Below, one piece after another: positions 27,211 through 61,219 of a stretch of DNA of 64,000 nucleotides. The stretch comes from Vicinamibacterales bacterium (GTDB lineage Bacteria > Acidobacteriota > Vicinamibacteria > Vicinamibacterales > JAMQPK01): assembly GCA_023717525.1 (NCBI GenBank), contig JAMQPK010000194.1:6064-70063 (forward strand), read 5' to 3'. The notes beneath the pieces are model-generated. The model was not told the origin of the DNA. It did not search any database and saw nothing but the letters and a program-made list of their open reading frames with translations. The first letter of the stretch is position 1. Every line of letters begins with the position of its first letter. The position numbers and the translations under genes were made by a program.

Positions 27211-27245
27211 TAGTTTTCAGTTTTTAGTTTTCAGTTTCCAGTATC
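27211..27245. repeat. single-arm tandem heptamer array TAGTTTT CAGTTTT TAGTTTT CAGTTTC CAGTATC
   Basis: Read directly. It ends 6 nt before the smc ATG, and no inverted partner was found nearby. Confidence 0.8.
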
Positions 27246-27251
27246 GCCCTT

Positions 27252-30200
27252 ATGCGCCTACAGCAACTCGAAATCTCCGGCTTCAAATCGTTCTCCGATC
27301 GCTCGCATTTGAACTTCGACCGTGGCGTGACGGCGATCGTGGGGCCGAACGGGTGCGGGAAGAGCAATGTGGCTGACGCCATCACGTGGGTGCTTGGCGA
27401 GCAGAGCGCCAAGAGCCTCCGTGGCGACCGCATGGAGGACGTGATTTTCAACGGCAGCGATGCGCGAAAGCCCACGGGCGCGGCCGAAGTCAGGCTCCGC
27501 CTCAGCGACGTGCTCTCGATGCCGGCCGGCAGCGGCAGCGCGACCGAAGCCGTGTTGGTTGAGGGGGATCCGCTGGGCGAAGATGATCCACCGGCGATTG
27601 CCAGAACGGTCGAGGTGACGCGCCGGTTGTATCGCTCGGGCGAGAGCGAATACCTGATTGACGGCGAAATCTGCCGGCTGCGCGACGTGCACGAGTTTCT
27701 GATGGATACCGGGCTCGGCGCCAAAGCCTACGCGATTATCGAGCAGGGAAAGATCGGCATGATCCTCAGCTCGCGGCCGACCGATCGCCGCCAACTGATC
27801 GAGGAAGCCGCCGGCATCACCAAGTACAAGGCACGGCGCCGGGCGGCCGAGTTGAAGCTCGAAGCGGCCCAGCTGAACCTGACGCGCCTGGAAGACATCA
27901 TCTTCGAGCTCGAGAAACAGTTTGGATCGTTGAAGCGTCAGTCGGCCAAGGCGCGCCGCTATAAGCGGTTGCGAGACGAGCAGCGCCAGTGGGAAAAAGT
28001 GCTGTTTGCCGGACGGTATCGAGAGGCGGCGCAGACGATCGAGTCGCTGCGATCACAGCTGGCGAACGCACGCGTGAAGGAGTCTGCGGCTGCCGCCGCA
28101 CTCGGTGCGGCGGACGCCGATTTCAGCCGCGTTCGTTTGTCGCTCGTGGAAGCCGACGCCCGTGCCACGGCTGCGCGCGAGGCCGTGCACAGCTGCGAGC
28201 TCGAAATCAATACACGCCGGCAGCAGATCGACTTCAACCGGCAGCAGATCGAGACGATCGGAATGCGGGCGACCGAGGTCCGCGGTGAACTGGACCAGCT
28301 TGTGGCTCGCCGCGAGCCGAGCCGGCTGGCCGTTGTGGAACGGGAAGCGGCGGCGTTGAAAGCCCGGCAAGACCAGCAGACCGCCGCGGCCGATCTGGAG
28401 GGCGTCGAGCGCGAATACGGCGACGAAAATCGCCGAATCGAGGGGCTCGAAGCCGACGTCGAGGCGGCGCGGTCTGAGGTGTTTTCGGCGCTGAACGTGG
28501 CGACGACGCTGCGTCATGCCATCCAGCACACCGAGGAGGCCGGCGCTCGTGTTTCCCAGGAACTCGCGAAGCTCGCCGTCGAGGAAGGCGACATCCGGAT
28601 TGAGAGGGAACGCCTCGAGGACGATCGGGCAGCCACGGCCGACGGCCTGCGGCGAGCCCAGCAGGCCGCCGAGGCGTCGATGCACGCGCGCACGGCGCGT
28701 GAGACAGAGCTTGCAACCGCCCGCATCGAGCTGGAATGGAAGTCGAACAACCTCCAGGCCCGCGAGCGGGAGCTCGCCGGTCTCACGGCCCGGCTTGCGT
28801 CGCTCACCGAGCTCGCGGAGGCCAGAACGGGTTACACCGAAGCGGCGCGCATGGTGCTCGCGCAGGCCAACGGCCACGTCGGTCAGCAGGGATCGGTCGC
28901 GGACTATCTCGAAGTCGAACCGAAGTACGAGCGCGCCGTCGAAGCGTGCCTCGGCGACCTCCTTCAGCACATCATCGTCGCGACGCATAAGCAGGCCGAG
29001 GCCGGGCTCGAACTGATCCGCCAGGAGAACGTCGGCCGCTGCGGGTTCGTCGTGCTGGAAGGTATCGAGGCCGGACACGAGCCAGCGCGACAGCCAGCGT
29101 TCCAGGGACTTGTGCCGGTCCGCGATGCGATCAGAGTGACGGGGCCTCATGCGGCGGCGATCCAGTCGGCGATTCCCAATGCGTGGATTGCCGCGGACCT
29201 GCATTCCGCCCTGGCCGCAGCCAGCGTTACGCCGCTGAGTGCGATTGCGACGCTGGCCGGGGAAGTCGTGCACGGTCGGGCGCTCGTGTCCGGAGGCGGC
29301 AAGGATGAAGGCCGCGCGATTCTTGGTATCAAACGCGAGATCAAGGAGCTGCGCGATCGGATCGCGGGCGAGGAAGCCGAGCGCGATCAGTCGGTGACCG
29401 ACGTCGCGGCACTGGACACACGCGTTGTGCAGGTCTCCAATGCGCTCGCCGCGGTGAACGGGGATCTGCACAGGGAAGAGAAAGCGATTCTGGCTCTGGA
29501 GATGCAACTGCAGCGATCGGCGGACGATCTCGAGAGAGTCGCCAAGAAGGCAGAACTGGTTGCCATCGAACGCCGGGGAGCGGAAGAGCAGCGAGACGGG
29601 TTCGATGCGCGTCAGCGGGAAGCGCGCGAGTCGATTGCCAGGCTCGATCAGGAACAGCGGGCGGCTGATTCCCGCTTGTCGCAGGCGCAGCACCGGCTTG
29701 GCGATGCGCGAGAAGCGCAGCAGGCGCTGGCGCGCCGCGCCGCTGAGGCCAAGGCGTCGTACGCGACGCAGGTCGAACGTGCAGCGGCGCTGCAAGCGGA
29801 AGTTGCGAGGCTCGAAGAGGGTTGTCGCGAACTCGAAGAGCGCGTGAAGGGTTCCCAGGCGAGCCTGACGGAACTTGATCGTCAGCGTGAGACGCTTCGC
29901 AGGCTCGTGGACGAGACGATCCTGCTGCTCGATGCAGACGGTGTTCGGCTGGAGAAACTGCGTGCGGAGGTTCGGCGCGCCGAGGACGCCGTCAACGAGC
30001 TTCGCCAGGAGGCCGATCGGCACGAATCGTCCATCCGCGATGCTCGCAAAGTTCTCGATGCGGCCCTCCAGGAGGTCGCCGAACTCGAGGTGTCGCGCGC
30101 CACGGCGGAAAGCCATCTGGGGCACCTTGCGGAATCCTGCCTTGAGACGCTGCAGCTGACACTGGATGAAGTGGCGTCGGAGATGGAGCAGTCCCAGCCG

Positions 30201-30923
30201 CCGGTTGTTGCGTCCGTGGCGGACGCCGAGGACGAGACCGACGAATCAGAGGAACGGGAGGTTGCGGTCATCGCGGAGTCTGCTTCACCCGAGGAACATA
30301 TCGCCAGTCTCCGGCGGAAGATCGATCGGCTTGGTCCGGTCAACATGATGGCCATCGATCAATTTGACGAGCTCGAGACCCGGCACACCTTCCTGACGAC
30401 GCAGCGGAAGGATCTCACCGATTCGATTCAGTCGACGAGCGATACGATCAAGAAGATCGACGAGACGAGCAAGGCGCGATTCCGCGAGGCCTTCGGAGCC
30501 ATCAAGGAAAACTTTCAATTGACGTTCAGTACGCTGTTCGGCGGCGGTCATGCCACCCTGGCGCTGCTCGACGAGAACGACGTGCTGGAGAGCGGCATCG
30601 AGGTTGTTGCCTCGCCGCCAGGCAAACGGCTGCAAAGCGTGATGCTGCTGTCGGGAGGCGAAAAGGCGCTGACGGCCATCGCGCTGATGTTCGCCATCTT
30701 CAGATACAAACCGAGTCCGTTCTGCGTGCTCGACGAAATCGATGCGCCCCTGGACGATGCCAACATCGGCCGGTTCGTCGAGATGCTGCAGGGCATGCAG
30801 GACCACACCCAGTTCATCATCATCACCCACAGCCGGAAGACGATGGAAATCGCCGATCGCCTGTATGGCGTGACGATGGAAGAGCCTGGTGTCTCGAAGC
30901 TGATCTCGATCGAGCTGAACTGA
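27252..30923 (+). CDS. smc: chromosome segregation protein SMC
   Basis: MRLQQLEISGFKSF...GPNGCGKSNV, long coiled coils, a hinge region, and C-terminal LSGGEKALTAIALMFAIF...LDEIDAPLD. Confidence 0.95.
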   Translation: MRLQQLEISGFKSFSDRSHLNFDRGVTAIVGPNGCGKSNVADAITWVLGEQSAKSLRGDRMEDVIFNGSDARKPTGAAEVRLRLSDVLSMPAGSGSATEAVLVEGDPLGEDDPPAIARTVEVTRRLYRSGESEYLIDGEICRLRDVHEFLMDTGLGAKAYAIIEQGKIGMILSSRPTDRRQLIEEAAGITKYKARRRAAELKLEAAQLNLTRLEDIIFELEKQFGSLKRQSAKARRYKRLRDEQRQWEKVLFAGRYREAAQTIESLRSQLANARVKESAAAAALGAADADFSRVRLSLVEADARATAAREAVHSCELEINTRRQQIDFNRQQIETIGMRATEVRGELDQLVARREPSRLAVVEREAAALKARQDQQTAAADLEGVEREYGDENRRIEGLEADVEAARSEVFSALNVATTLRHAIQHTEEAGARVSQELAKLAVEEGDIRIERERLEDDRAATADGLRRAQQAAEASMHARTARETELATARIELEWKSNNLQARERELAGLTARLASLTELAEARTGYTEAARMVLAQANGHVGQQGSVADYLEVEPKYERAVEACLGDLLQHIIVATHKQAEAGLELIRQENVGRCGFVVLEGIEAGHEPARQPAFQGLVPVRDAIRVTGPHAAAIQSAIPNAWIAADLHSALAAASVTPLSAIATLAGEVVHGRALVSGGGKDEGRAILGIKREIKELRDRIAGEEAERDQSVTDVAALDTRVVQVSNALAAVNGDLHREEKAILALEMQLQRSADDLERVAKKAELVAIERRGAEEQRDGFDARQREARESIARLDQEQRAADSRLSQAQHRLGDAREAQQALARRAAEAKASYATQVERAAALQAEVARLEEGCRELEERVKGSQASLTELDRQRETLRRLVDETILLLDADGVRLEKLRAEVRRAEDAVNELRQEADRHESSIRDARKVLDAALQEVAELEVSRATAESHLGHLAESCLETLQLTLDEVASEMEQSQPPVVASVADAEDETDESEEREVAVIAESASPEEHIASLRRKIDRLGPVNMMAIDQFDELETRHTFLTTQRKDLTDSIQSTSDTIKKIDETSKARFREAFGAIKENFQLTFSTLFGGGHATLALLDENDVLESGIEVVASPPGKRLQSVMLLSGGEKALTAIALMFAIFRYKPSPFCVLDEIDAPLDDANIGRFVEMLQGMQDHTQFIIITHSRKTMEIADRLYGVTMEEPGVSKLISIELN

Positions 30924-30969
30924 CCGATCGCTCAGGAACCTTTAGGGAGGCCCGTTCGTCAGTACTCCC

Positions 30970-31791
30970 ATGCCCCGTCAGCCCTCAGCCCTTAGCCCTC
31001 AGCCCTTGAAGGCATGGCTGGTCATCGTGCCCATGCTGGGCGCTGTCGCCTGCGATGTTCAGGTCCGCGAGGGAAACGTCAAGCTTGGCGTATTTTCCGC
31101 CGAGGCGAAGCAGGAGTGGATACGGGAGTATCCCTTGCCCGCCGGGGGCGAGGTGGAGATCGCGAACCTCAACGGGCCCATCGAACTCACCATGGGACCC
31201 GCGGGTCCTCTCGAGGTGCGGATCGACATCAGGGCAAAGTCGCTGACCGAGAGCATCGCCAGAGAGATCCTGAACAAGGGCAAGATTGAGGAGACGGTAT
31301 CGCTCGAACGGGTGAAGGTCGAGACGGTGGTTCCGAGAGGTATCCACGGGTCGTACGAAGCGCGCTACCAGGTCCGCGTTCCGCCTGGCGTCGCTGCCCA
31401 GGTTTCGACCACGAATGGATCGGTGAAAGCCGTCGGTCTCGCCGGCAAGCTGAAAGCGTCGGTGGTGAACGGAGCGGTTGAACTGACGGCGATCTCAGGG
31501 GCGCTCGATGCCGCGGTCGTGAACGGATCACTCGTGGTGAAGCTTGCGCAGGTGACGGCTCCGATACGGCTGGAGACCACCAATGGGCGGCTCACGCTGG
31601 AGCTGCCCAAGACGAGCCGGGCGGACCTCTCGGCGCGCGTCGTCAACGGCGGGTTGAGCGTGTCCGGGCTTCCCGTCGAGGAACCCGCCCAGCGGCGAAT
31701 CAGGAATCTCGAAGCGATGCTGAACGGCGGAGGCCCGACCGTCGATCTTCGAACCACAAATGGGCGGATCAGCATCACCGGCACGGAATGA
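30970..31791 (+). CDS. DUF4097-like beta-helix protein (putative lipoprotein)
   Basis: Repeated NG(S/A/G)(V/L) turns (TTNGSVKAV, VVNGAVEL, VVNGSLVV, TTNGRLTL, VVNGGLSV, TTNGRISI). The start is uncertain: a TTG at 31006 would give MKAWLVIVPMLGAVAC. Confidence 0.6.
   Translation: MPRQPSALSPQPLKAWLVIVPMLGAVACDVQVREGNVKLGVFSAEAKQEWIREYPLPAGGEVEIANLNGPIELTMGPAGPLEVRIDIRAKSLTESIAREILNKGKIEETVSLERVKVETVVPRGIHGSYEARYQVRVPPGVAAQVSTTNGSVKAVGLAGKLKASVVNGAVELTAISGALDAAVVNGSLVVKLAQVTAPIRLETTNGRLTLELPKTSRADLSARVVNGGLSVSGLPVEEPAQRRIRNLEAMLNGGGPTVDLRTTNGRISITGTE
30978..31005. repeat. tandem heptamer array TCAGCCC TCAGCCC TTAGCCC TCAGCCC
   Basis: Read directly. It lies either in the n-region of the predicted signal peptide (if the ATG at 30970 is used) or directly abuts a TTG start at 31006. 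Confidence 0.75.
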
Positions 31792-32885: not shown

Positions 32886-32894
32886 GATATCCCG

Positions 32895-33407: not shown

Positions 33408-33429
33408 CACGAGCGCGCCGCCTGTCTGT

Positions 33430-33798: not shown

Positions 33799-33846
33799 GA
33801 CGGTTCTCCTTACCGGGGGGGCTGGGTGAACCTGGACATTTGAAAA

Positions 33847-33890
33847 TTGAACATTGAAACATTGCAGCAATGCAATGTTTCAATGTTCCA
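33847..33890 (-). terminator. hairpin (18-bp perfect stem, 4-nt loop) built from GAACATT/GAAACATT units; probable pnp terminator
   Basis: GAACATTGAAACATTGCA-gcaa-TGCAATGTTTCAATGTTC. In minus sense it is followed by AAUUUUCAAAU. Confidence 0.55.
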
Positions 33891-33902
33891 GTGTAGCAGT
33901 CT

Positions 33903-36014: not shown

Positions 36015-36038
36015 GTGTTCCTCAGGAATTCATCGGCG

Positions 36039-36122
36039 AGTGAGTGATAGGTGATTGGGTGATCGGGAGTTCCAGTTGGAGATTGGATTTCCTATCGCAC
36101 AATCACCAATCGCACCGATCAC
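36039..36122 (-). repeat. imperfect long inverted repeat of GGTGATN-type units in the rpsO-pnp intergenic region
   Basis: Plus-strand left arm GTGAGTGATAGGTGATTGGGTGATCGGG and right arm CCTATCGCACAATCACCAATCGCACCGATCAC. Hand pairing gives a stem of about 25-30 bp with several mismatches or wobbles. Confidence 0.6.
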
Positions 36123-36127
36123 AATAT

Positions 36128-36397: not shown

Positions 36398-36475
36398 GAA
36401 CGGTACCTCCGCGAACGGCCCAGTGGAGTGAGGCTCCCCAGTCCGCCGCAATGTGTTAACCCCAAAAGGGATATT

Positions 36476-38740: not shown

Positions 38741-38751
38741 AGGGTGAATCT

Positions 38752-38786
38752 GAAAGTAGAAAGTAGAAAGTAGAAACTGGAAAGTA
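38752..38786. repeat. single-arm tandem heptamer array GAAAGTA x3, GAAACTG, GAAAGTA
   Basis: Read directly, between the infB stop (38802) and the rbfA start (38740). In gene sense it reads UACUUUC CAGUUUC UACUUUC x3. Confidence 0.85.
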
Positions 38787-38801
38787 AAGCCAAAAGTCGA
38801 T

Positions 38802-41537: not shown

Positions 41538-41542
41538 AAGCG

Positions 41543-42943
<1,401 letters not shown>

Positions 42944-42948
42944 AAATT

Positions 42949-43509: not shown

Positions 43510-44916
43510 TCATACGGGATTTTCACCGACAACGGCCGCGTCGCGCACGAAAACGGGCCGCGCCACCAGGTCGTACTCGCGAGATCCCACGATTTCGGCC
43601 TCAAGCAGCGTGCCCGGCCGCAACGACGCTGTATCGATATCGGTCAGGTAAACCACCGCATCGATGTCCGGCGCCTGGCCCATCAACCGGCCCCGCCACA
43701 CCAGCTCATGCTCGGGCGACGGACCGTCAATCATCACCTTGACCTGCGTCCCGAGGCGCTTCTTCTGCGCTCGTGAGACGATGCGCTTCTGTTCGGCCAT
43801 GAGCGCGTTCCGGCGCCGCGTCTTGACGCTCGTCGGGACGTCATCGACCAGGTCGTGCGCCGTCGTGCCTTCCTCGTGGGAGTAGGTGAACACGCCCACG
43901 TGGTCGAAGCCGACGCTCCGGACAAAATCCAGAAGCATCGCGAAGTCTGCGTCCGTTTCTCCGGGAAACCCCACGATGAACGTGGTGCGCAGCGCGACGC
44001 CCGGTACCCGCGCCCGGATTCTGGCAAGGAGCAGCTCGTATCCCCGGCCGGTGCCCGGCCGCTTCATCCGACGCAGGACGTCATCCGATGCGTGCTGCAA
44101 AGGCAGATCGATGTACTTGCACACCTTGTCGCACGCCGCCATCGCATCGAGGATGTCGTCGGTGATCGTCGTCGGGTAGAGGTAGAGCAGTCGAATCCAG
44201 TCGATGCCATCGACCTCGTTCAGCTCTCGAAGAAGCTGTGGAAGGGCGGCGCCGTAGCCTGCGTCCCGTCCGTAGAAGGTCGTATCCTGCGAAATCAGGA
44301 TGATTTCCCGGATGCCTCGCGCGGCGAGCGCGCGCGCTTCCCGCACGATCTCGTCGACCGGCCGGCTGCGGTAGTGGCCACGCAGCGTCGGGATGATGCA
44401 GAACGAGCACTTGTAGTCGCAGCCTTCGGCAACCTTCACGTACGCGAAATGCCGGGGCGTCGCAAACACGCGAGGCGAGTCGGCGTCATACAGGTAGGTG
44501 GGAAGGCTCTGGGCTTTCGGCTTTGGGCTCTGGGCCTGGCCCACGAGCTGCAACGGGATGACGCTGCGACGGGTGTTCTCGATCGCGCCGACGATTTCCG
44601 GAACATCCCCTGTGCCGAGCACCGCGTCAATCTCCGGAATCTGCTGCTTCAGTTCGTCGCGATAGCGCTCGCCCAGGCAGCCGGTCACGACCAGGCGTTT
44701 GCACCGGCCGTGCTTCTTGAATTCGGCCAGCTCCAGGATCGTGTTGATCGATTCTTCCTTGGCCTTGTCGATAAACGCGCAGGTGTTGACGACCAGGACG
44801 TCAGCGTCAGCCGGATCGGCCGTCAACGTGTGGCCGCCCTCCTGCGACAAGCCCATCATGACCTCGGAGTCGACGAGGTTCTTGGGGCAGCCGAGCGACA
44901 CGAAACCTACTTTCAT
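43510..44916 (-). CDS. rimO: ribosomal protein S12 methylthiotransferase RimO
   Basis: MKVGFVSLGCPKNLVDSE N-terminus, radical-SAM motif EGCDYKCSFCIIP, and a C-terminal TRAM domain. Internal ATG at 44916. Confidence 0.85.
   Translation of the reverse strand: MKVGFVSLGCPKNLVDSEVMMGLSQEGGHTLTADPADADVLVVNTCAFIDKAKEESINTILELAEFKKHGRCKRLVVTGCLGERYRDELKQQIPEIDAVLGTGDVPEIVGAIENTRRSVIPLQLVGQAQSPKPKAQSLPTYLYDADSPRVFATPRHFAYVKVAEGCDYKCSFCIIPTLRGHYRSRPVDEIVREARALAARGIREIILISQDTTFYGRDAGYGAALPQLLRELNEVDGIDWIRLLYLYPTTITDDILDAMAACDKVCKYIDLPLQHASDDVLRRMKRPGTGRGYELLLARIRARVPGVALRTTFIVGFPGETDADFAMLLDFVRSVGFDHVGVFTYSHEEGTTAHDLVDDVPTSVKTRRRNALMAEQKRIVSRAQKKRLGTQVKVMIDGPSPEHELVWRGRLMGQAPDIDAVVYLTDIDTASLRPGTLLEAEIVGSREYDLVARPVFVRDAAVVGENPV
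44505..44539. repeat. heptamer run GGCTCTG GGCTTTC GGCTTTG GGCTCTG GGCCTGG inside rimO
   Basis: Read directly. It encodes GQAQSPKPKAQS in the linker between the MTTase N-domain and the radical-SAM domain. Confidence 0.7.
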
Positions 44917-44923
44917 AAATGTT

Positions 44924-45010
44924 CGATTGGGCGATTGGTGAGTGGGTGATAGGAATGGCGGCCGCAAATCATTCACTCACCTGCAAATCACCCAGTCACC
45001 TATCACCAAG
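44924..45010 (-). repeat. imperfect inverted repeat of GGTGATN/GGTGAGT units between asnS and rimO
   Basis: Left arm CGATTGGGCGATTGGTGAGTGGGTGATAGG and right arm ATTCACTCACCTGCAAATCACCCAGTCACCTATCACCAAG. The central loop contains GGCGGCCGC. Confidence 0.65.
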
Positions 45011-45021
45011 TCTCCAATATC

Positions 45022-46314
45022 TCAAGGCGTCACTCTGTACATCATACGTGGGAAGGGCGTTGCTTCGCGGACGTGCTCCAATCCGCAGATCCACCCGACG
45101 ACGCGTTCGATGCCCATGCCAAAGCCCGCATGCGGTACCGACCCGAATCGCCGCAGATCGAGGTACCACTCGAAGGCCTCCTGCGGAAGGTTGTGGTCCT
45201 TGAGGCGCTGCAGCAGCACGTCGTAGCTGGCGAGGCGCTGGCTGCCGCCAATAATCTCGCCGATTCCTTCGGGAGCCAGCACGTCGACGCAGAGCGCGAG
45301 CTCGGGCCGGAGAGGATCCGGTTCCATGTAAAACGGTTTCACCACTGCGGGATATCGATGGATCGCCACCGGCCGATCGAAATGCTGGGACAGGATGGTT
45401 TCGTCTGTTCCGCCGAGATCCCCGCCCCATTCGAACGGTTGTCCCTTGTCCTGCAGAATCTTCACAGCCTCGTCATACGAGATGCGGGGAAAAGGCGGCT
45501 GAACTGCCTCGAGCCTGGACGTGTCGCGCTCGAGGACCTTCAGCTCGCGGCGACGTTTCTCGAGCACGCGTGACACGACGGCGACGACCAGTCCTTCGGC
45601 GAGGTTCATCACGTCATCGAGGGTGGCGTAGGCCATTTCCGGCTCGACCATCCAGAACTCGGTGAGGTGCCGCCGGGTCTTGGACTTTTCCGCGCGGAAG
45701 ACCGGACCGAAGTTGTACACGCGGCCCAGCGCCATCGCGTTGGCTTCTGCGTAGAGCTGTCCGCTCTGCGTAAGGAAAACCTTCTGGTCCTCGAAGTAGT
45801 CGACCGGAAAGAGCGTGGTCGTGCCCTCGCACGCGGCCGGCGTGAAGATGGGGGTGTCGGCGAGGATAAAACCGCGATCGTTGAAGAAGTCGCGGACCGC
45901 CGTGATCACCTCGTGGCGCACGCGCAGGATCGCGTGCTGCCGCTCGGAGCGGATCCAGAGATGACGGCGATCGAGAAGAAAGTCGACGCCATGTTCCTTG
46001 GGAGTGATGGGATAGTCGGTCGAGCCGCTCACGATCTCGAAATCCTGCACGTCGAGCTCGAAGCCGCCCGGTGCCCGGCTGTCCGCGCGCACGTTGCCAT
46101 GGACGATGATCGCCGTCTCCTGGGAGAGGTGATCGGCCTGCTTGAACTTTTCGTCGCCGACGGTGGCTTTCGAGACGATCGCCTGGATGAAGCCGGTGCC
46201 GTCGCGCACGGACAGGAAGTGAATCTTCCCGCTCGATCGGCGGTTGTGCAGCCAGCCATGGATGACGACGTGCTGGCCTTCGTGCCTGGCGATGTCTTCG
46301 ATATAGGCGTTCAT
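45022..46314 (-). CDS. asnS: asparagine--tRNA ligase
   Basis: Close resemblance, from memory, to the compact Thermus-type AsnRS. Motifs: [55 protein letters not shown], and C-terminal [17 protein letters not shown]. Confidence 0.9.
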
Positions 46315-49810: not shown

Positions 49811-49838
49811 AGGGAGGGGATTATGTCAGTTTTCGGTT

Positions 49839-49915
49839 AACTTGAAACTAGAAACTGGAAACTGGAAAGTAACTTCAAAACTTACTTTCCAGTTCCTAGT
49901 TCCCAGTTTCAAGTT
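49839..49915 (-). repeat. 34-bp hairpin made of GAAACTR/GAAAGTA heptamers and their complement
   Basis: AACTTGAAACTAGAAACTGGAAACTGGAAAGTAA - 9-nt loop - TTACTTTCCAGTTCCTAGTTCCCAGTTTCAAGTT, hand-paired. 30 Watson-Crick pairs plus 4 transition mispairs. Confidence 0.9.
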
Positions 49916-51045
49916 ACACGGATTCTGTATGAAAGTCCCTTAAGCGTGGGCTTTCCCACGTCCTTCCCAAACAGCAGAACCTTGTGCGTGCTGCCGAGCC
50001 CGCCGGGCAACAGCAGGGTCTTCAGCGCAAGACGGCGCTGCATGGCCGAAGGCTCGAACGACTGATCCAGCGCCATCATCTCGTCCAAACCTAATCCCAG
50101 CATGAAGTAGGTCTGATCGAGACGGCCGAGAGACTCGAGGCCGGCCTGTTCGCCAGCTCTCGTGACGGCGGTGAGGTCGACATGCGCCGTGATGTCGCAG
50201 TCGCCCGGAGTCTGCAGGACCTCGGCGAATGTCGTGTGCGATTTGAAGGTCGTCAGCGTGCCTGCAGAGTGCGACGCTCCGTAAAGCTCCTCGGCGCTGT
50301 GCCCGTAGTCGATCACCATCATGAAGCCCTTCTCGAGCGAACGCGCGGCAGTGCCGACCCAGTCTTCGGCGGCAAGGTTGACCTCTGCGCGCCAGCCCTG
50401 ATGCATTTTGGCGCCGGCGCGCGACAGGTAATCGGAGATGCGCGGTGTCGACAGCGTCTCAAGGTACTCGACGAATTGCCCGTCCCGCTCGTCGACGAAG
50501 ATCTCGCGCAGGCCGGCGTCCGTCATGGTGACGGCGTGAGTGGGAAACGCGTCCAGGAGCTCGTTGGCGAAGATAACGCCGTAGACGTGTTCCGGCAGCT
50601 CGGCCGAGCTGTGCACGAGATGCGACGCATGATCGCCAAGCGTTGCGCGCTGGGCGCTTCTCGCCGCGGCCGATCGTTCGACGAGCGAGAGCCGGATCGA
50701 CGCGTAGAGATCTGGATCTGTGCGCTGAAGGGCGTCGAGAACATCCTTCGATAACCGCCCGTTGCCGCTGCCGGCTTCGACGAGGTCGACGGCTTCAGGC
50801 TTCGGGCTTTGGGCTTTGGGTCCGATCAAGCGAAGCATTTCGGCGATCTGCTTGGCGAGCAGTTCGCCGAATACGGCTCCGACATCGACGCTCGTAAAAA
50901 AATCGCCCGCGCGTCCAGTTCGCTGGGCCGCGCGGGCGTAGTAGCCAAACTCGGGCTGGTAGAGTGAGAGGTCCATGAACTCTGCGAAGCTGATCGGTCC
51001 GCTTTCGCGGATCCTTTCACTGATCAGCTGGCGGAGAGGATTCAT
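49909..51045 (-). CDS. class I SAM-dependent methyltransferase (DUF185, MidA/NDUFAF7 family)
   Basis: ISFAEFMDLSLYQPEFGYYA...GDFFTSVDVG...LVEAGSGNGRL. Confidence 0.75.
   Translation of the reverse strand: MNPLRQLISERIRESGPISFAEFMDLSLYQPEFGYYARAAQRTGRAGDFFTSVDVGAVFGELLAKQIAEMLRLIGPKAQSPKPEAVDLVEAGSGNGRLSKDVLDALQRTDPDLYASIRLSLVERSAAARSAQRATLGDHASHLVHSSAELPEHVYGVIFANELLDAFPTHAVTMTDAGLREIFVDERDGQFVEYLETLSTPRISDYLSRAGAKMHQGWRAEVNLAAEDWVGTAARSLEKGFMMVIDYGHSAEELYGASHSAGTLTTFKSHTTFAEVLQTPGDCDITAHVDLTAVTRAGEQAGLESLGRLDQTYFMLGLGLDEMMALDQSFEPSAMQRRLALKTLLLPGGLGSTHKVLLFGKDVGKPTLKGLSYRIRVT
50791..50818. repeat. heptamer run GGCTTCA GGCTTCG GGCTTTG GGCTTTG inside the MidA-like gene
   Basis: Read directly. 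It encodes KAQSPKPEA. Confidence 0.7.
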
Positions 51046-51047
51046 GG

Positions 51048-51110
51048 CTTCGGACTCCGGGCTCCGGACTCCAGGCCCAAAGCCTGAAGCCCGAAGCCCG
51101 AAGTCCAGAG
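51048..51110 (-). repeat. 29-position hairpin of GGCTYCG-type heptamers immediately upstream of the MidA-like start codon
   Basis: Hand pairing of 51048-51076 with 51082-51110 and a 5-nt loop gives 22 Watson-Crick pairs. Five further positions are C-A/A-C on the plus strand, which become G-U on the minus strand. Confidence 0.85.
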
Positions 51111-51111
51111 A

Positions 51112-52680: not shown

Positions 52681-52717
52681 ATGAAGAACCTCCGAAATGA
52701 AGCGCGTTCGCGCCGGT

Positions 52718-53905: not shown

Positions 53906-53984
53906 AAATCAGTATAGCCGTTCCCCTTACTTGGACGTGTTCAGCGGGGGGATGGTTTGGACAGGGAGTGCGTATAATTGAGGG

Positions 53985-56177: not shown

Positions 56178-56179
56178 GC

Positions 56180-56614
56180 ATGAAACGTTTCATCACGCTC
56201 CTGATGACGCTTGGGGCAGCGGTGCTGGCTCAGGCCGCCCAGGCTCCTGCGATTACGTCCATCGCTAAAGGGGACATGAGCGGCGTGCAGACGGCGCGCC
56301 AGGTCACGGTCCGCACGCTCGCCGAGTGGCAGAAGCTGTGGAAGGAACACGCGCCGGAAGAGAAGATGCCTGCCGTCGACTTCACCACACGCATGGTCGT
56401 CGGTATTTTTCTGGGATCGAAGCCGAGCGCCGGGTATGAAGTGGAGATCTTGAACGTGCGGCCGGAGGGAAAGGACCTCGTCGTCGAGTACGCTCAGAAA
56501 CAACCGGGGCGCGGCGCGATGGCCGCTCAGATTCTCGTCGAACCCTTCCACCTCGTCGCCGTCGCAAAACACGCCGGACCAGTGCGGTTCCTGCACGTGC
56601 CAGATACACGCTAG
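56180..56614 (+). CDS. PrcB_C-domain-like secreted protein
   Basis: Internal ATG gives the signal peptide MKRFITLLMTLGAAVLAQA. ...VDFTTRMVVGIFLGSKPSAGYEVEI... resembles the PrcB C-terminal domain. Confidence 0.55.
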   Translation: MKRFITLLMTLGAAVLAQAAQAPAITSIAKGDMSGVQTARQVTVRTLAEWQKLWKEHAPEEKMPAVDFTTRMVVGIFLGSKPSAGYEVEILNVRPEGKDLVVEYAQKQPGRGAMAAQILVEPFHLVAVAKHAGPVRFLHVPDTR

Positions 56615-56677
56615 TCCCTGGTCCTTTGTCCTTGGTCCTTTGTCCGGACCAAGAACGAAGGACCAAGGCCCAAGGAC
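56614..56677. repeat. imperfect inverted repeat GTCCYTK x4.5 / GGMCCAA x4.5 filling the gap between two convergent stop codons
   Basis: Hand pairing gives about 26 of 32 positions paired. Confidence 0.7.
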
Positions 56678-57169
56678 CTAAGAAGCTCCGGCTTTCACTG
56701 CCTTCAGCTTGACCGGCTTCACGGTGCCGTTGTTCTGCTCGAACTTGTATTGCGGCTGCGTCATCCCCGCCACCTTCGGCGACCTCAAGACGATCGTCGC
56801 CACGTCGAGCGGCTGGAGCGGCGTGCGGAGCCGCTGACGATCGCCGGTCCCCTGCAGAGGCTGTCCGGCCTTGTCGTACCAGAATTCCGTAATCTGCAGG
56901 CCGACGAGCGCGTTGGTCGCATGCATGTTCTTGACCTGGAAGGTCGTCACAATCGTGTTGCCTTCCAGCTTCGCCGACTGCATGAATCCCAACTCGGCGA
57001 CGCCGCGAAGGGGAGGCGCCGATTTCTTCAATACCGATGCCTGGGCCGAGGCTGGAGCCGCCGGAGCCTGAGCCGCCGGGGCCGCCGTTTGAGCCGACAG
57101 GGTCACCACCGCGGCTGAGGTCAGCACAGCGGCCGTTATCGCGATTCCAGACGCATATCGCACGCGCAT
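56678..57169 (-). CDS. secreted protein of unknown function
   Basis: Internal ATG with AAGGAG upstream. Signal peptide MRVRYASGIAITAAVLTSAAVVTLSAQ, an Ala/Pro-rich linker, and a beta-rich C-terminus. Confidence 0.5.
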   Translation of the reverse strand: MRVRYASGIAITAAVLTSAAVVTLSAQTAAPAAQAPAAPASAQASVLKKSAPPLRGVAELGFMQSAKLEGNTIVTTFQVKNMHATNALVGLQITEFWYDKAGQPLQGTGDRQRLRTPLQPLDVATIVLRSPKVAGMTQPQYKFEQNNGTVKPVKLKAVKAGAS

Positions 57170-57217
57170 CTTCAACTCCTTCGAATACAGGGTGGATCTG
57201 CCGGGCATTATAGGCGA

Positions 57218-57676
57218 CTACATCTCACCGTTCCAGTCCTCCGGTTCCGGGTTGATCGATCGGAAGATCTCCAGGTGCCACTTGCCCCCGCCCCAGGGCT
57301 CGATGACCTCTGTTGCCACGACATCCACGAGAATTTCGGCGAATGTCCGTGCCTCGGGGTCGCCCTCGAGGTGGTAGCCCGGCTCGTCCCAGCCGAAATT
57401 CGGATACAGCACAACCGTCAGGAACAGGTCGTACCCGTCGTCCACGACGATAAGCTGGCCGCACGGGCGTTTGGTGGTGGAGTGGTAGACGAGGTACTTC
57501 TCGGCGCTGTGTGCGCGGATGTAGCGTTTCAGCGCAAATTCGCGCGCGACGATTTCCTCGATGGCGATCTTCTTGTCCCAGCAGTCGCGGCAGTACCGCT
57601 CGTCGCCGCGGGGCTCGGAGACCTCCTTGGCGCCGCACAACGCGCAACGGGTCTTAGCGACTGATTTGCGGGGCAC
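57218..57676 (-). CDS. zinc-ribbon (CxxC...CxxC) protein of unknown function
   Basis: MPRKSVAKTRCALCGAKEVSEPRGDERYCRDCWDKK..., then a domain of about 110 aa that I do not recognise. It overlaps the glgP 3' end by 23 nt. Confidence 0.5.
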   Translation of the reverse strand: MPRKSVAKTRCALCGAKEVSEPRGDERYCRDCWDKKIAIEEIVAREFALKRYIRAHSAEKYLVYHSTTKRPCGQLIVVDDGYDLFLTVVLYPNFGWDEPGYHLEGDPEARTFAEILVDVVATEVIEPWGGGKWHLEIFRSINPEPEDWNGEM

Positions 57677-59810
57677 TTGAGTCCTTTGCCTGCTGGGCAG
57701 CCGGCGCGTACATCTCTTCGACGTACTGCTTCAGCATGCGTGCAGCGCTGAACCGCGGAGTGACGGAGCGGATGCACTCCTTCACGATTCGAAGCCAGGC
57801 CTGCGGCACGCCGCGCTGGTCGCGCTGATAGTAGGTCGGCACAACTTGCTCTTCGAGCAGGCGATAGAGCGCGTCGGCATCGGCTGCGTCCTGTGCATCC
57901 TGATCGTCGAAAGGTCCGCCACCGTCGATCACCCAGCCGTTCGATCCATTGTAGCCCTCGGCCCACCATCCATCGCCAATGCTCAGATGCGGCACACCAT
58001 TGATGCTTGCCTTCATGCCGCTCGTGCCGCTGGCCTCGAGCGGCTTCCGCGGGGTGTTCAGCCAGACGTCGCAGCCCTGCGTGAGGAAGTGAGCCACGTG
58101 GAGGTCGTAGTCGTCCACGAATGCGATACGTCCGCCATAGATGGGGTCGATGGCATGCCGGTAGATCTGCTGAAGATGGCCCTTACCGGCGTCATCGGCG
58201 GGATGCGACTTGCCAGCGAAGACGATCTGCACGTGCCGCCGCGGCGACGCGAGGATACGGATCAACCGTTGCGGATCGCGAAAGATCAGCTCCGGCCGTT
58301 TATAAGCCGTGAAACGGCGGGCGAAGCCGATCGTGAGCGCGCTTGGGTCGAGCAACGGGCCTGCTGCGACAACCGCGGCGGCCGTCACGCCCTCCTGTCC
58401 CCAGCGATCGCGCGCGCGGTCGCGGATGAACGCAAAGAGGAACCTCTTCAATGCCGTGCGAGCGCTCCAGAGGTCTTCGTCCGGAATGTCGAGGACGCGA
58501 TCCCAGTACGCGGCTTCGTCGCTGCGGTCGCGCCAGTCGGGGCCGATGTGGCGCTCGACAACCCGCGCCATTTCCGCCGCCAGCCAGGTCGGCACGTGCA
58601 CGCCGTTGGTAATCGCTTTCAGCGGACGCTGCCGGTTCGCATCCCGCTCGGCCAGGATCGGCTCCCACATGGTGCGCGTCACGTCGCCATGGAGCCGGCT
58701 GACGCCGTTCGCGAAGCTGGACGTCCGGAGCGCGAGCGACGTCATGTTGAACTGACCGTGGTATTCGCCGAGCGACAGGAAGCGGCTGCGAATGTCGGCG
58801 AGTGGACCCCACGCGCCCTGTAAATGATGCTCGACGCGTTCGAACGAAAAGGCGTCGTGTCCCGCGGCGACCGGCGTGTGCGTCGTGAAGATCGTGGCCC
58901 GGCGCACGCGCTCCAGCGCATCGTCGAAGCCCGCGCCCTCGGCGATGTACTCGTAGATGCGCTGCAGGACGACGAACGCCGCGTGGCCTTCGTTCAGGTG
59001 CCACACGTCGGGTGTGATCCCGAGGGCGCGGAGCGCGCGGACGCCGCCGATGCCGAGAATGATTTCCTGCTGGAGGCGCGTTTCGCGATCGCCGCCGTAG
59101 AGTCGGGCCGACAGGTCTCGATCCTGCGGCGCGTTCTCTTCGAGCCCCGTGTCGAGCAAGTACAAGGTCACTCTTCCGACCGACACCTTCCAGACGTTGG
59201 TCAACACCGCGCGATCGCCCAGGGGCACAGCCACGATGCATGGGCTGCCGTCCGGCTTCAGGGCCTGCTCGATGGCGACGTCGGGCCAGTTGAGACGCTC
59301 GTATGTTTCGAGCTGCCAGCCCTCAGGAGAGACGTGCTGGTGAAAATAGCCCTGCGGGTACATAAAGCCCACGCCCACGAGCGGCACGCCAAGGTCGCTG
59401 GCCTGCTTACAGTGATCGCCGGCAAGCGCGCCGAGGCCTCCGGCGTAGATCGGCAGGGATTGATGAATGGCGAACTCGGCCGAGAAGTACGCGATCGTCG
59501 CCCCTTGTGCCTGGGGAAACCGCCGTGCCATCCACGTGTCTTTCGCCTCGTACGCCGCGTCCAGCCCGGCGACCGCCGCGTCGTACACACTGAGAAACTC
59601 CGGATCGCGCGCCGACTGCTCGAGCCGCTCTTGCGAGACGAGCCACAGCATGCGGACTGGGTTGTGCGCCGTCGTTCGCCACAACTGATAGTCGAGGTCG
59701 CGAAAAACCTTGCGGGGCGCGTGGTGCCAACTCCACCACAAATTCCCGGCGAGTTCGTCGAGACGCCCAATGCGCTCTGGAAGTGGCGGCAAGCCTTTAT
59801 AACGGTTCAT
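57654..59810 (-). CDS. glgP: alpha-glucan family phosphorylase
   Basis: 718 aa: LDELAGNLWWSWH, AYFSAEFAIHQSLPIYAGGLGALAGDH, and EASGTSGMKASINGV (PLP Lys region). Confidence 0.85.
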   Translation of the reverse strand: MNRYKGLPPLPERIGRLDELAGNLWWSWHHAPRKVFRDLDYQLWRTTAHNPVRMLWLVSQERLEQSARDPEFLSVYDAAVAGLDAAYEAKDTWMARRFPQAQGATIAYFSAEFAIHQSLPIYAGGLGALAGDHCKQASDLGVPLVGVGFMYPQGYFHQHVSPEGWQLETYERLNWPDVAIEQALKPDGSPCIVAVPLGDRAVLTNVWKVSVGRVTLYLLDTGLEENAPQDRDLSARLYGGDRETRLQQEIILGIGGVRALRALGITPDVWHLNEGHAAFVVLQRIYEYIAEGAGFDDALERVRRATIFTTHTPVAAGHDAFSFERVEHHLQGAWGPLADIRSRFLSLGEYHGQFNMTSLALRTSSFANGVSRLHGDVTRTMWEPILAERDANRQRPLKAITNGVHVPTWLAAEMARVVERHIGPDWRDRSDEAAYWDRVLDIPDEDLWSARTALKRFLFAFIRDRARDRWGQEGVTAAAVVAAGPLLDPSALTIGFARRFTAYKRPELIFRDPQRLIRILASPRRHVQIVFAGKSHPADDAGKGHLQQIYRHAIDPIYGGRIAFVDDYDLHVAHFLTQGCDVWLNTPRKPLEASGTSGMKASINGVPHLSIGDGWWAEGYNGSNGWVIDGGGPFDDQDAQDAADADALYRLLEEQVVPTYYQRDQRGVPQAWLRIVKECIRSVTPRFSAARMLKQYVEEMYAPAAQQAKDSSAPQISR

Positions 59811-61087
59811 CGAACCACCGATCGTAGTCGTGCCCCAGCGTCGCCGTCAACGAAGCTCCGCCGATAGTTCCTGAGCGCTGGAGTCGTCACCGCGATCCAC
59901 GCAGTGGCCACTAAACATCCGAGCCCTCCAGTGACGACCGACGCGCGCGCCCCGGCCCATTGCGCCACCAGGCCGGCCTCGAGTTCGCCCAGTTGTGGCC
60001 CTCCCTGAAAGAACACCATGTTGACACCGGTCATTCTTCCGCGCAGGTGGTCAGGCGTACCGAGCTGGCGGACGACGTTGCGAAGCACCATGCTGACGGT
60101 GTCGGCGGCGCCCGTGGCGGCGAGACACAGGAAGGTCAGCCAGAACGCCTGCGAAATACCAAAGACGATGGTGGCTCCGCCGTACGCGCACACCGCCCAG
60201 AGCAGTACCACTCCGCGCCGCTCGATGCGCTCGATCGAGCGCACCATGATCACGCTCGTCAGCACCGCGCCAATCGATGGAGCGGCGTACAGCCAGCCGT
60301 ATCCCTTCGCGCCAACGTGCAGGATGTCTTGAGCAAAGATCGGCAGCAGTGCGGTCGCCGACGAGAAAAACGTGGCGAAGAAATCCAGCAGCATCGTCGA
60401 TCGGATGATGGGATCGGCAAATACGAACCCCAGGCCCTCTTTGATGGCGCCAAGGCTGATTTCGCTGGCCTGCCGCGAATCGCGCGCCGGCACATCGCGC
60501 ATCATCAGCAGGGCGGCGATTACGAACACGAAGGTGAGCGCGTTCAGCAGGTACACCCAACCGACGCCCAGCGTGGCAATCACGATTCCGCCGAGCGCGG
60601 GTCCGGATACCGATGCGACCTGCAGCATGATCGCGTTCAGGCTGATGGCGTTCGGCAGGTGATCGCGGGGCACAAGCGTGGGCGTCAGCGACTGGCGCGC
60701 CGGACCGTCGAACGCGCCGGCCGAGGATCCGATCGCGGCCAGGAGATAGATGGGCCACGGCTGGGTCAATCCTCGAAAACTCAGAATAGCGAGCAGGACT
60801 GCGGTGACGCCCATCGCCGCCTGCGTCACGAGCATCACGCGCCGGCGGTCCCAGGCGTCGGCGACGGCACCGGCGGCTATCGAGAAACACACAATCGGCA
60901 AGAGGCGCACGAGACCGACCATGCCGAGCGCCAGCGCGCGCTTGTCTACCGGCACGAGCAGCGAGACGTGCCACAGAATCGCAGCCGTCTGCATCATTGA
61001 GCCCGAAAACGAAACAAGCTGGCCTGACCACAAAAGACGAAAGTTGCGATGCTGCAGCGCGACGAACGGGGACTTCGTGAACGACAA
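59807..61087 (-). CDS. MFS transporter
   Basis: 426 aa, about 12 TM, FRLLWSGQLVSFSGSMMQ N-terminus (EntS/YbdA-like subfamily pattern). TTG start. Confidence 0.8.
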   Translation of the reverse strand: MSFTKSPFVALQHRNFRLLWSGQLVSFSGSMMQTAAILWHVSLLVPVDKRALALGMVGLVRLLPIVCFSIAAGAVADAWDRRRVMLVTQAAMGVTAVLLAILSFRGLTQPWPIYLLAAIGSSAGAFDGPARQSLTPTLVPRDHLPNAISLNAIMLQVASVSGPALGGIVIATLGVGWVYLLNALTFVFVIAALLMMRDVPARDSRQASEISLGAIKEGLGFVFADPIIRSTMLLDFFATFFSSATALLPIFAQDILHVGAKGYGWLYAAPSIGAVLTSVIMVRSIERIERRGVVLLWAVCAYGGATIVFGISQAFWLTFLCLAATGAADTVSMVLRNVVRQLGTPDHLRGRMTGVNMVFFQGGPQLGELEAGLVAQWAGARASVVTGGLGCLVATAWIAVTTPALRNYRRSFVDGDAGARLRSVVR

Positions 61088-61103
61088 CGCGGGGAGTATA
61101 TCG

Positions 61104-61219
61104 CGTGGGAGAACGTGGGAGAACGTGGGAGAACGAAGGACAACGTAGGAGAGCGTAGGTCGCGTAGGAAAACGTGGGATTAACCCTACGTTCTCCTACG
61201 CCGCCTACGTTTTCCTACG
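61104..61219. repeat. tandem 9-10-nt array (CGTGGGAGAA x3, then degenerate CGTAGGNNNN units) whose inner four units pair with a downstream complementary array
   Basis: Read directly. Hand pairing of 61144-61178 with 61184-61219 gives a long imperfect stem. The units at 61104-61143 are unpaired. Confidence 0.85.

Follow-up and report, generated by a model that had tools for sequence, protein, structure and literature searches.

What decides the order of the two arms when short tandem repeats of seven nucleotides face each other, inverted, in the spacers between bacterial genes? The question is raised by a stretch of 64,000 nucleotides from a Vicinamibacterales bacterium (Acidobacteriota; GenBank assembly GCA_023717525.1, contig JAMQPK010000194.1, positions 6,064 to 70,063), referred to here as the window. 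A sequence-only reading had described a rule for these repeats: a purine-rich (R) arm first and a pyrimidine-rich (Y) arm second in the sense of transcription, with the Y arm abutting start codons that lack a Shine–Dalgarno (SD) motif, where it would act as an S1-dependent enhancer of translation that the purine arm could mask. Inverted heptad arrays of this kind bracket a small gene of the PF05635 family wedged between other genes, and a cassette whose arms form an RNA stem explains the polarity with a probability of about 0.6. This account draws on observations of the anatomy, the polarity, the positions (including placement flush with stop and start codons), the recurrence across phyla and the predicted stability of the cassette, a widespread element that seems not to have been described before.

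Results

Period-7 arrays in the window and its relatives

Arrays were called with Tandem Repeats Finder and with an own period-7 detector and score threshold, using block shuffles as a control. At this threshold, 12 period-7 tandem arrays were detected in the window (G+C content of 62%), whereas 50 block shuffles yielded 0.04 on average; other repeat periods give 0–3 arrays, and periods 4–6, 8, 9 and 11 give none. The arrays are almost all intergenic, many of them fold as very stable hairpins, and their heptad units differ from locus to locus. The inventory comprises two PF05635 cassettes (18538-19123 and 20228-20709), about seven gene-less hairpins and three solitary arrays. The gene identities and most of the start codons named earlier were confirmed by Pfam annotation and N-terminal translations, and an Rfam scan of the window returned no family above threshold and no rRNA.

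The relatives used for comparison, ~2 Mb in all and from species other than the window's organism, consist of 80 loci around pnp from Acidobacteriota genomes (1.4 Mb) and 80 metagenome loci with relatives of the window PF05635 gene (0.55 Mb). The window PNPase shares at most 81% identity with PNPases of uncultured Vicinamibacterales (Acidobacteriota). The window has 18.8 arrays per 100 kb, as compared with 5.4 for Vicinamibacterales relatives and 1.9 for other Acidobacteriota. All loci together hold 203 arrays, 183 of them intergenic and 20 in coding sequence, mostly between co-directional genes and near stop and start codons.

Inverted heptad arrays enclose PF05635 genes

Both window cassettes show the same arrangement, in which arms of 23–38 nt, 79–100% complementary to each other, enclose a gene:

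18538..18578, plus strand: cassette 1, 5′ purine-rich arm, (AGGGCAG)x6 (Tandem Repeats Finder, inverted-repeat search)
18702..19082, plus strand: cassette 1, PF05635 / TIGR02436 four-helix-bundle gene 1, 126 aa, in the loop (profile matches)
19085..19123, plus strand: cassette 1, 3′ pyrimidine-rich arm, (GCCCTCT)x5.7 (repeat and inverted-repeat search)
20228..20255, minus strand: cassette 2, 3′ pyrimidine-rich arm, (GUCACUC)x4 in the minus sense (repeat and inverted-repeat search)
20274..20663, minus strand: cassette 2, PF05635 / TIGR02436 four-helix-bundle gene 2, 129 aa (profile matches)
20691..20709, minus strand: cassette 2, 5′ purine-rich arm, (AGUGACG)x2.7 in the minus sense (repeat and inverted-repeat search)

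The 5′ arm of cassette 1 begins at the TAG stop of a sigma-54 activator gene (17133-18539), and its 3′ arm starts 2 nt past the stop of the PF05635 gene and ends 11 nt before the stop of the convergent aroB; complementarity between 18538-18578 and 19086-19123 reaches 97–100%. In cassette 2 the 3′ arm lies 13 nt upstream of the aroB start (20214, minus strand), and 27 nt separate the 5′ arm from the PF05635 start that follows it. On the plus strand, this 5′ arm is also the GUCACUC array that had been assigned to nadB (start 20736, gap of 26 nt), just as the 3′ arm is the one assigned to aroB. The composition given for these two arrays was right, but they fall outside the interval to which they had been ascribed and are two arms of one inverted pair, enclosing a PF05635 gene that had been missed. 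The neighbours of the window PF05635 genes are aroB, nadB and the sigma-54 activator.

Profile matches place both genes in PF05635 / TIGR02436, the ‘23S rRNA intervening sequence protein’ or Avd-like four-helix-bundle family. Gene 1 matches PF05635 with an E value of 1.6e-16 (60.9 bits) and TIGR02436 with 3.8e-21 (75.4 bits), gene 2 with 1.6e-36 (125.2 bits) and 1.2e-34 (118.8 bits), respectively, all above the curated cut-offs of 33.8 bits (PF05635) and 24 bits (TIGR02436). Gene 2 also matches PDB 2GSC (XCC0516; E 8e-27). The Avd profile of diversity-generating retroelements (DGRs), NF033474, gives only a weak match to the window PF05635 protein (E 2e-4, 21.5 bits against a cut-off of 80). 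Neither gene (18702-19082 and 20274-20663) was called by a codon-usage caller trained on the surrounding genes, both falling below its threshold, which indicates an atypical codon usage.

The same architecture is found throughout the Acidobacteriota metagenome loci. Of 59 inverted repeats enclosing a PF05635 gene, 56 have a purine-rich 5′ arm and 2 a pyrimidine-rich one; when the cut-offs are tightened, the purine fraction of this arm is at least 0.6 in 50 and at most 0.4 in none. Counted singly, arrays upstream of PF05635 genes are R-rich in 48 cases and Y-rich in 3, and those downstream are Y-rich in all 44. Upstream, the unit seen most often is (A/G)GUG(A/G)YN, with its complement downstream; other G-rich units are GGGCAGA, CAGGAGU and GGGACGA. 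The enclosed proteins form 46 clusters at 80% identity, and 75% of the arrays in PF05635-bearing loci lie within 250 nt of the PF05635 gene.

The cassettes are fitted closely between their neighbours. A co-directional upstream open reading frame (ORF) is present in 49 of the 59, the median position of its stop being -1 nt relative to the first paired base; this stop is TGA in 31 of the 49 and often lies within the first repeat. A co-directional downstream ORF follows in 50 of the 59 and starts at a median of 14 nt past the last paired base of the stem. In 11 loci upstream of a hydantoinase gene, the ATG is inside a variant last repeat, CACAUGUCAC; here the ATG-bearing Y unit CACAUGU is matched by GUGAYAUGUG in the purine arm, and there is no SD motif. 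PF05635 proteins from the same junction (macA/macB-like, hydantoinase, hisS) are 73–83% identical, as compared with 63% between junctions, which indicates that the cassettes are old and resident at fixed sites. No PF05635 gene was found near pnp in the 80 related genomes.

PF05635 is a large family (>7,800 matches at E <= 1e-10 among 8,000 candidates scored), and the cassette extends to other phyla. A tblastn search of plasmids returned 36 records with PF05635 homologues, 16 of which were examined; in 11 of these a clear purine-rich array lies upstream and a complementary pyrimidine-rich array downstream, namely in Nostoc edaphicum (UAGGGAG / UCCCUAC), Anabaena sp. 90 (GGUGACA), Calothrix (GGGUGUA), Stanieria (GGCAGAA), Picosynechococcus, Geminocystis, N. 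punctiforme, Aulosira (UCAGGAG), Leptolyngbya, Azospirillum (GGACAGA) and Riemerella (AAGGUUC). The upstream arm of N. punctiforme and Aulosira is made of UCAGGAG repeats that end 3–4 nt from the ATG. Two further copies have the downstream pyrimidine arm only and one is ambiguous; the Y-then-R order does not occur among the 16. Several plasmid cassettes lie within operons (cas6|cas4, cmr2|cmr3, ribonucleotide reductase subunits). The architecture thus recurs in Acidobacteriota, Cyanobacteriota, Bacteroidota, Pseudomonadota and, only probably, Gemmatimonadota.

Some details of these loci are worth recording in their own right. Cassettes in CRISPR-cas operons were seen in Anabaena sp. 90 pANA02, Pseudanabaena galeata and Picosynechococcus PCC 7003, at cas6/cas4 in two and at cas10/cmr2-cmr3 in one. 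In Pseudanabaena, (AAAAGCU)x14 stands upstream and (AAAAGCC)x10 downstream of the PF05635 gene, and in Oscillatoria purine-rich arrays lie on the same strand on either side of it. Most public contigs with close PF05635 homologues are only 0.5–1.3 kb long, which suggests that assembly from short reads breaks off at the arrays on either side.

Gene-less hairpins and solitary arrays

The remaining arrays of the window have no gene between their arms, or no partner arm at all. Seven hairpin loci were folded in the sense of the flanking genes, with z values calculated against shuffled sequence:

33840..33895, minus strand: gene-less hairpin, weakly R-then-Y (-40.3 kcal/mol, z -5.6)
36040..36125, minus strand: gene-less hairpin, GGUGAUN-type heptads, R-then-Y (-33.8 kcal/mol, z -2.6)
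44925..45025, minus strand: gene-less hairpin, GGUGAYN-type heptads, R-then-Y (-37.6 kcal/mol, z -2.7)
49827..49927, minus strand: gene-less hairpin, GAAACUG / CAGUUUC heptads, 49-nt arms, R-then-Y (-51.3 kcal/mol, z -8.5)
51046..51110, minus strand: gene-less hairpin, weakly Y-then-R (-53.9 kcal/mol, z -7.5)
56614..56678, no strand assigned: gene-less hairpin, GUCCUUU / GGACCAA heptads, Y-then-R (-36.4 kcal/mol, z -4.8)
61104..61219, minus strand: hairpin with a 10-nt period, R-then-Y (-58.0 kcal/mol, z -6.6)
27212..27242, plus strand: solitary (AGUUUUC)x4.4 array, pyrimidine-rich, no partner arm, predicted unpaired (repeat search, folding)
30978..31006, plus strand: solitary (UCAGCCC)x4 array at the DUF4097 start, predicted unstructured (repeat search, folding)
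38752..38786, minus strand: solitary (UACUUUC)x5 array, less structured than shuffles, z +2.1 (repeat search, folding)
50791..50824, minus strand: heptad array inside the Methyltransf_28 coding sequence, encoding GPKAQSPKPEA (inverted-repeat search, translation)

The hairpins fill spacers. That at 33840-33895 sits between the pnp stop (33903) and a cupredoxin gene, and that at 36040-36125 between the rpsO stop (36128) and the pnp start (36014), its Y arm ending at about 36040 and being followed by a GAGGA SD motif. The hairpin at 44925-45025 runs from the stop of a class-II aminoacyl-tRNA synthetase gene (45022; lysS/asnS) to 8 nt before the rimO ATG (44916; MKVGFVSLGCPKN). At 49827-49927 it overlaps the Methyltransf_28 stop (49909), and the start of the CYTH gene (49810) lies 17 nt beyond its end; the arm itself ends at 49827-49839, leaving a gap of 17–28 nt to the start. 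The hairpin at 51046-51110 takes up the whole spacer from the HtrA-like stop (51112) to the Methyltransf_28 ATG (51045), and the Methyltransf_28 gene has GGAG motifs within its array arm. The hairpin at 56614-56678 exactly occupies the gap between two convergent stop codons. Finally, 61104-61219 lies between the stop of a metallo-beta-lactamase-fold gene (61222) and the start of a major facilitator superfamily (MFS) gene (TTG 61087), beside which there are three extra unpaired CGUUCUCCCA copies.

As for the solitary arrays, the smc ATG (27252) lies 9 nt past the first. The second is coding if DUF4097 starts at ATG 30970 and leader if it starts at TTG 31006, the start being ambiguous. The third has the infB stop (38802) on one side and, 11 nt away on the other, the rbfA start (38740, minus strand). 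The coding array at 50791-50824 is complementary to the intergenic arm 51065-51098, ~250 nt away; together with another coding array in rimO (44505-44535) it belongs to a GGCUUYG class.

Hairpins that are intergenic, very stable and often placed right after stop codons, one of them between convergent genes and one, downstream of pnp, followed by UUUU, might be taken for ordinary intrinsic terminators or for stabilisers of mRNA 3′ ends of the repetitive extragenic palindromic (REP) type. This reading is highly improbable. A terminator scan flagged no heptad hairpin and found 13 sites in the region against 15.8 expected; the sole convincing terminator, 43475-43454, is of the conventional kind, with a short GC stem and a run of T. 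Moreover, most of the hairpins are inside operons of essential genes (nusA-infB-rbfA-truB-rpsO-pnp), and no REP-like sequence is common to the loci.

Several features of the same spacers were noted in passing. In the infB–rbfA spacer, most relatives (loci L002–L026) carry a DUF503-like ORF of ~95 codons (…SLKDKRMV…FNVAVAEVDHQDLWQRA…), which is missing from the window, where 38741-38801 has only the (UACUUUC)x5 array. The rpsO leader (window 36398-36475, minus strand) contains a motif, ACGGCGG.CUGG ... CUGGGCCGU.CGUGGAGG, that nearly every Vicinamibacterales relative retains; it matches nothing in Rfam and may be an S15 autoregulatory leader. Another leader motif, AGAAGCUGGCGCAGC..ACAGAAAGA, is conserved ~40 nt upstream of pnp in several relatives (L007, L008, L011, L023). 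The window lacks it, and the heptad hairpin takes up that spacer. Apart from the arrays, window positions 2254-4003 hold three tandem ORFs of 177 codons with recurring CGGCGATCA 9-mers, which look like a tandem triplet of paralogous genes.

The purine-first order is a property of the cassette

All nine sites at which the sequence-only reading had placed a pyrimidine-rich arm or array nearest a start codon exist and have the composition given, and the two exceptions it named, 51046-51110 and 56614-56678, are indeed Y-then-R. The orientation ‘in the sense of transcription’ nevertheless loses its meaning for any complete inverted repeat. Such a repeat is its own reverse complement in arrangement, so that R-then-Y is read identically on both strands and the order carries no information on the direction of genes; at 49827-49927, for example, the plus strand has GAAACUAGAAACUGG in its 5′ arm and the minus strand GAAACUGGGAACUAGG. 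A binomial test of orientation against gene direction, as had been suggested, is therefore usable for solitary arrays only. Nor does the wording of the rule fit the cassettes, where it is the purine-rich arm that adjoins the start codon of the PF05635 gene itself. Since this arm precedes the gene and the inverted repeat reads alike on both strands, the Y arm comes to lie beside any flanking start, which is how the rule came to be seen at aroB and nadB.

Within the window, 7 pairs are R-then-Y and 2 are Y-then-R, and the solitary arrays are Y-rich in sense in three of three; pooled, the polarity is marginal and post hoc (p ~0.04, two-sided). A general bias in orientation, on which the rule had been made to depend, was looked for in the relatives and was not found. 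Arrays at most 40 nt upstream of start codons are Y-rich in 10 cases and R-rich in 9 overall, the Y:R ratio being 5:0 for the window, 4:5 for the pnp loci of Vicinamibacterales and others, and 1:4 for the flanks from metagenomes. Gene-less heptad hairpins are R-first in 10 cases and Y-first in 6, with 2 ties, which is not significant. At the dhh–truB junction, three relatives have Y-then-R hairpins with the purine arm on the truB start, and the orthologous junctions of nusA-infB-rbfA-truB-rpsO-pnp show unrelated heptads, either polarity or no array. The purine-first polarity is thus real, but it is near-absolute only in PF05635 cassettes and vanishes elsewhere in the relatives; gene-less hairpins and solitary arrays have no reliable polarity. 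The rule in its original form is largely an artefact of symmetry, combined with a small sample and a property of the cassettes.

These data bear directly on the proposal that the Y arm is an S1-dependent, SD-independent enhancer of the downstream gene, with the purine arm masking it and so regulating initiation. Several features speak for such a role. At rbfA, smc and DUF4097 the solitary arrays, like the three additional MFS copies, are Y-rich in sense and predicted to be unpaired, and these unpaired arrays lie 9–17 nt from start codons without an SD motif; the hydantoinase-linked cassettes have their ATG within a Y-arm unit, again without SD; and RNase III cleavage would leave a downstream mRNA that starts with half a Y arm. 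For the TAACTGA heptamers that abut SD-less starts in Beggiatoaceae, binding of S1, Csp or CsrA has been proposed (MacGregor 2015; PMC4679880). The absence of SD motifs, however, is not particular to these genes. Solitary arrays do precede SD-less starts, but pnp has its GAGGA, and a missing SD is usual among the genes here, with or without an array: GGAG, GAGG or AGGA occurs at -20..-4 in 17/54 window genes and in 103/348, 206/590 and 116/421 genes of the related sets (28–35%), and in 22/73 genes with an array upstream, so that there is no depletion against background. Pairing of the arms does sequester the region just upstream of the start. The paired Y arms lie in stems of -34 to -58 kcal/mol (z -2.6 to -8.5) and are not unstructured leaders. 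The even split of start-abutting arrays, the Y-then-R hairpins at dhh–truB in three species and the purine-rich arms beside PF05635 starts point the same way, as does a polarity that is strand-symmetric and holds beside a convergent neighbour (cassette 1 and aroB). As a general explanation the enhancer is therefore very unlikely; the solitary arrays at rbfA, smc and DUF4097, pyrimidine-rich and predicted to be unstructured, may have an S1 or standby role. The polarity is not a translation signal tuned to neighbouring genes and is better explained by constraints on the cassette.

Discussion

A proposed looped-out cassette between operon genes

The full form of the cassette comprises ~30 nt of purine-rich heptads, a PF05635 gene of ~125 codons and complementary pyrimidine-rich heptads, set between a gene's stop and the start of the co-directional gene that follows. 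In the model favoured here, by analogy with the intervening sequences (IVSs) of 23S rRNA, the arms would pair in the operon transcript and loop out the PF05635 ORF, the upstream stop and the downstream start would be brought to the base of the stem, and the stem would be a substrate for RNase III and be cut there. Two constraints could then impose the polarity. A G/A-rich and often SD-like arm would be placed ahead of the cassette's own ORF; and a C-rich arm transcribed last would pair at once and never be exposed as a Rho-loading site, whereas the same arm, if it were transcribed first, would be left without a partner over ~400 nt and might load Rho. The polarity is attributed to the cassette itself since it is confined to the gene-containing form, and both constraints predict its absence from short gene-less hairpins, as observed.

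Two other ideas were considered. Stop codons in all frames were rejected as a reason for the polarity: (GAGUGAC)n has UGA in three frames, but AGGGCAG, GGGAAUC and several cyanobacterial heptads have none. Telomerase-like addition at 3′ ends was set aside as speculation.

The geometry of the stems also suggests a bridge for translational coupling, in which a ribosome terminating on the upstream gene would unwind the stem and free the paired start, so that coupling within the operon survives an insert of 60–500 nt. Stops at the first paired bases (median -1 nt) and starts just past or inside the last (median +14 nt) are what such a bridge would need. The window stem at 51046-51110 begins 4 nt past a stop and ends 5 nt before an ATG, the hairpins between lysS/asnS and rimO and between the metallo-beta-lactamase-fold and MFS genes are likewise flush with the flanking codons, and the ATG-bearing unit CACAUGU is mirrored by GUGAYAUGUG in the R arm. 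The argument is purely geometric, though, and it leaves unexplained both the polarity and the hairpins that face convergent genes (56614-56678, and the side of cassette 1 towards aroB); pnp and the cupredoxin gene, moreover, have SD motifs of their own well clear of the stem. We consider coupling rather unlikely as the explanation.

Points that weigh against the cassette, and what DNA alone could explain

Not everything fits the RNA-stem cassette, and the following points weigh against it. In the window, 8 of the 12 arrays do not adjoin a PF05635 gene, and a hidden Markov model search over the six-frame translation found no PF05635 remnants in the loops of its other hairpins; the link of the gene-less hairpins to the cassette rests on their common architecture and common heptad types (GUGAYN at rpsO–pnp and rimO). 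In Acidobacteriota the purine arm lies at a median of 20 nt, and up to 155 nt, from the PF05635 start, so that it is often not a working SD. Two of the 16 plasmid copies (Pseudanabaena and Oscillatoria) have same-strand arrays on both sides that are not inverted. Mirroring of the unit order between arms, assessed by permuting heptads, gave a mean z of 1.45 with 2/19 in the top 5%, a weak and partly circular result. The relatives being other species, the window's own genome could still hold a real bias in gene-less arrays. Lastly, mismatches in cassette stems (30 G-U against 27 A-C) do not single out the sense RNA over explanations that rest on DNA or on both strands; with no strand signal in them, there is room for a contribution at the level of DNA.

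The last point leads to a neutral account, in which replication slippage, favouring 7-nt units in many bacteria, makes the heptads, cruciforms, G-quadruplexes or sites for a PF05635 pentamer are their only possible roles, and the 9:2 bias among gene-less arrays of the window is sampling noise. In addition to the lack of strand asymmetry in the mismatches, orthologous junctions carry unrelated heptads, both polarities or no array, which implies fast turnover. As cited in PMC4679880, Mrazek (2007) found heptanucleotides to be the most abundant class of long simple sequence repeats (SSRs) and proposed polymerase slippage. G-rich strands form G-quadruplexes in vitro (Rehm 2015; PMC4692102), and typical arrays of 3–5 units may be set beside a protein that is a homopentamer (PDB 2GSC, 5 chains; PMC4990558). 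Slippage alone, however, makes neither inverted complementary arrays 400 nt apart nor a polarity of 56:2 nor a placement flush with stops and starts, and it should act everywhere, yet coding sequence is nearly free of arrays (20/203). Most heptads (GAGUGAC, GAAACUG, GGACCAA) also lack the G-tracts for a G-quadruplex. An origin and role in DNA only is unlikely on this evidence.

Significance

Heptanucleotide arrays have been catalogued since about 1990 (short tandemly repeated repetitive (STRR) sequences, long SSRs, G-rich repeats), and we are aware of no accepted function for them. PF05635 has solved structures and, to our knowledge, no known role outside rRNA intervening sequences and DGR Avd. 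The cassette architecture joins the two and gives both a testable context; the cassette would be an ‘intron-like’ insert at the RNA level that neither wrongly stops upstream translation nor silences the downstream gene of the operon. The arrays are of practical concern as well, as they appear to break metagenome assemblies, mislead the calling of start codons and insert into operons such as CRISPR-cas. It is conceivable, though doubtful, that PF05635 genes are the cargo of widespread operon intervening sequences, looped out and probably excised by RNase III, that such cassettes or their remnants are the source of bacterial heptanucleotide arrays (STRR, the GGGAATC of Xanthomonas, the acidobacterial heptads), and that the pentamer recognises arrays of 3–5 units.

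Comparison with known systems

The tandem heptanucleotide STRR repeats of cyanobacteria were reportedly described by Mazel in 1990. These and the long heptanucleotide SSRs resemble the window arrays in being abundant, intergenic, without an assigned function and sporadic across phyla; they differ in having been described as repeat classes and fingerprinting targets, and we found no description of inverted pairs around a gene.

Among the closest described repeats are the heptamers GGGAATC of Xanthomonas and GGGGAYT of Nostoc (Rehm et al. 2015; PMC4692102), ~90% of which are intergenic, typically with four units, and which include 70–75 inverted ‘convergent’ GGGAATC pairs per Xanthomonas genome. 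The G-rich repeats occur just past stops on the sense strand or, on the antisense strand, immediately ahead of ORFs. As in the window, these are 7-nt arrays of ~4 units, intergenic and mostly between co-directional genes. Their inverted pairs have the G-rich arm first, the order that the sequence-only reading had described; among the acidobacterial arrays this order holds for pairs around a PF05635 gene (56 of 59) and is not significant for gene-less hairpins (10:6). Each genome has a single heptad, however, whereas here each locus has its own and most are unable to form a G-quadruplex. The authors interpret them as G-quadruplex elements and draw no connection to PF05635 genes. In their supplementary table, repeat #15 lies on the start codon of XCC0516, a gene listed only as ‘conserved’, and XCC0516 is the PF05635 protein of PDB 2GSC.

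Other paired or start-abutting repeats also bear comparison. The genome of Geobacter metallireducens (PMC2700814) has paired sites of tandem hepta-, octa- and nona-nucleotide repeats on opposite strands, with variable spacing and sometimes beside ISGme8/9; this paired-site architecture may be related. The TAACTGA repeats of marine Beggiatoaceae are likewise heptamer arrays a few nucleotides upstream of SD-less starts, and gave rise to the same idea of an S1-type role, but they are one fixed heptamer, in 169 direct sets as against one inverted, with no R/Y-biased hairpins and no associated gene reported. REPs, with the related bacterial interspersed mosaic elements (BIMEs) and REPINs, are also intergenic imperfect palindromes, often in inverted pairs and inside operons; unlike the locus-specific tandem heptads, they reuse a single conserved sequence within a genome, headed by GTAG or CGTC, and rely on a REP-associated tyrosine transposase (RAYT). 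No RAYT turned up in the window, where no search aimed at it was made.

The protein and its rRNA context provide the remaining parallels. DGR Avd has a homologous four-helix-bundle pentameric fold, but the window genes have no adjacent reverse transcriptase and no template/variable repeat pair, and their score is far below the Avd cut-off. In the literature searched, which did not extend to subscription-only work, no published link was found between PF05635, S23p or the four-helix bundle and heptamer or STRR repeats. A further counterpart is the rRNA IVS of Coxiella and Leptospira. In Coxiella, the 23S IVS consists of a PF05635 ORF looped out by a terminal stem of 28 bp, and RNase III cleaves this stem at its middle in vitro (Warrier et al. 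2016; PMC4990558). The two elements share the protein family, its position in the loop of a ~28-bp terminal-repeat stem and vertical inheritance at a fixed site. They differ in location, helix 25 or 45 of 23S rRNA in the one case and the spacers between protein-coding operon genes in the other; heptad-built arms and a purine-first polarity are not reported for the rRNA element, and excision by RNase III, demonstrated there, is for the window cassettes a putative step. The cassette thus appears to be a new variant of the IVS-type element and may hold the key to how heptanucleotide arrays arose.

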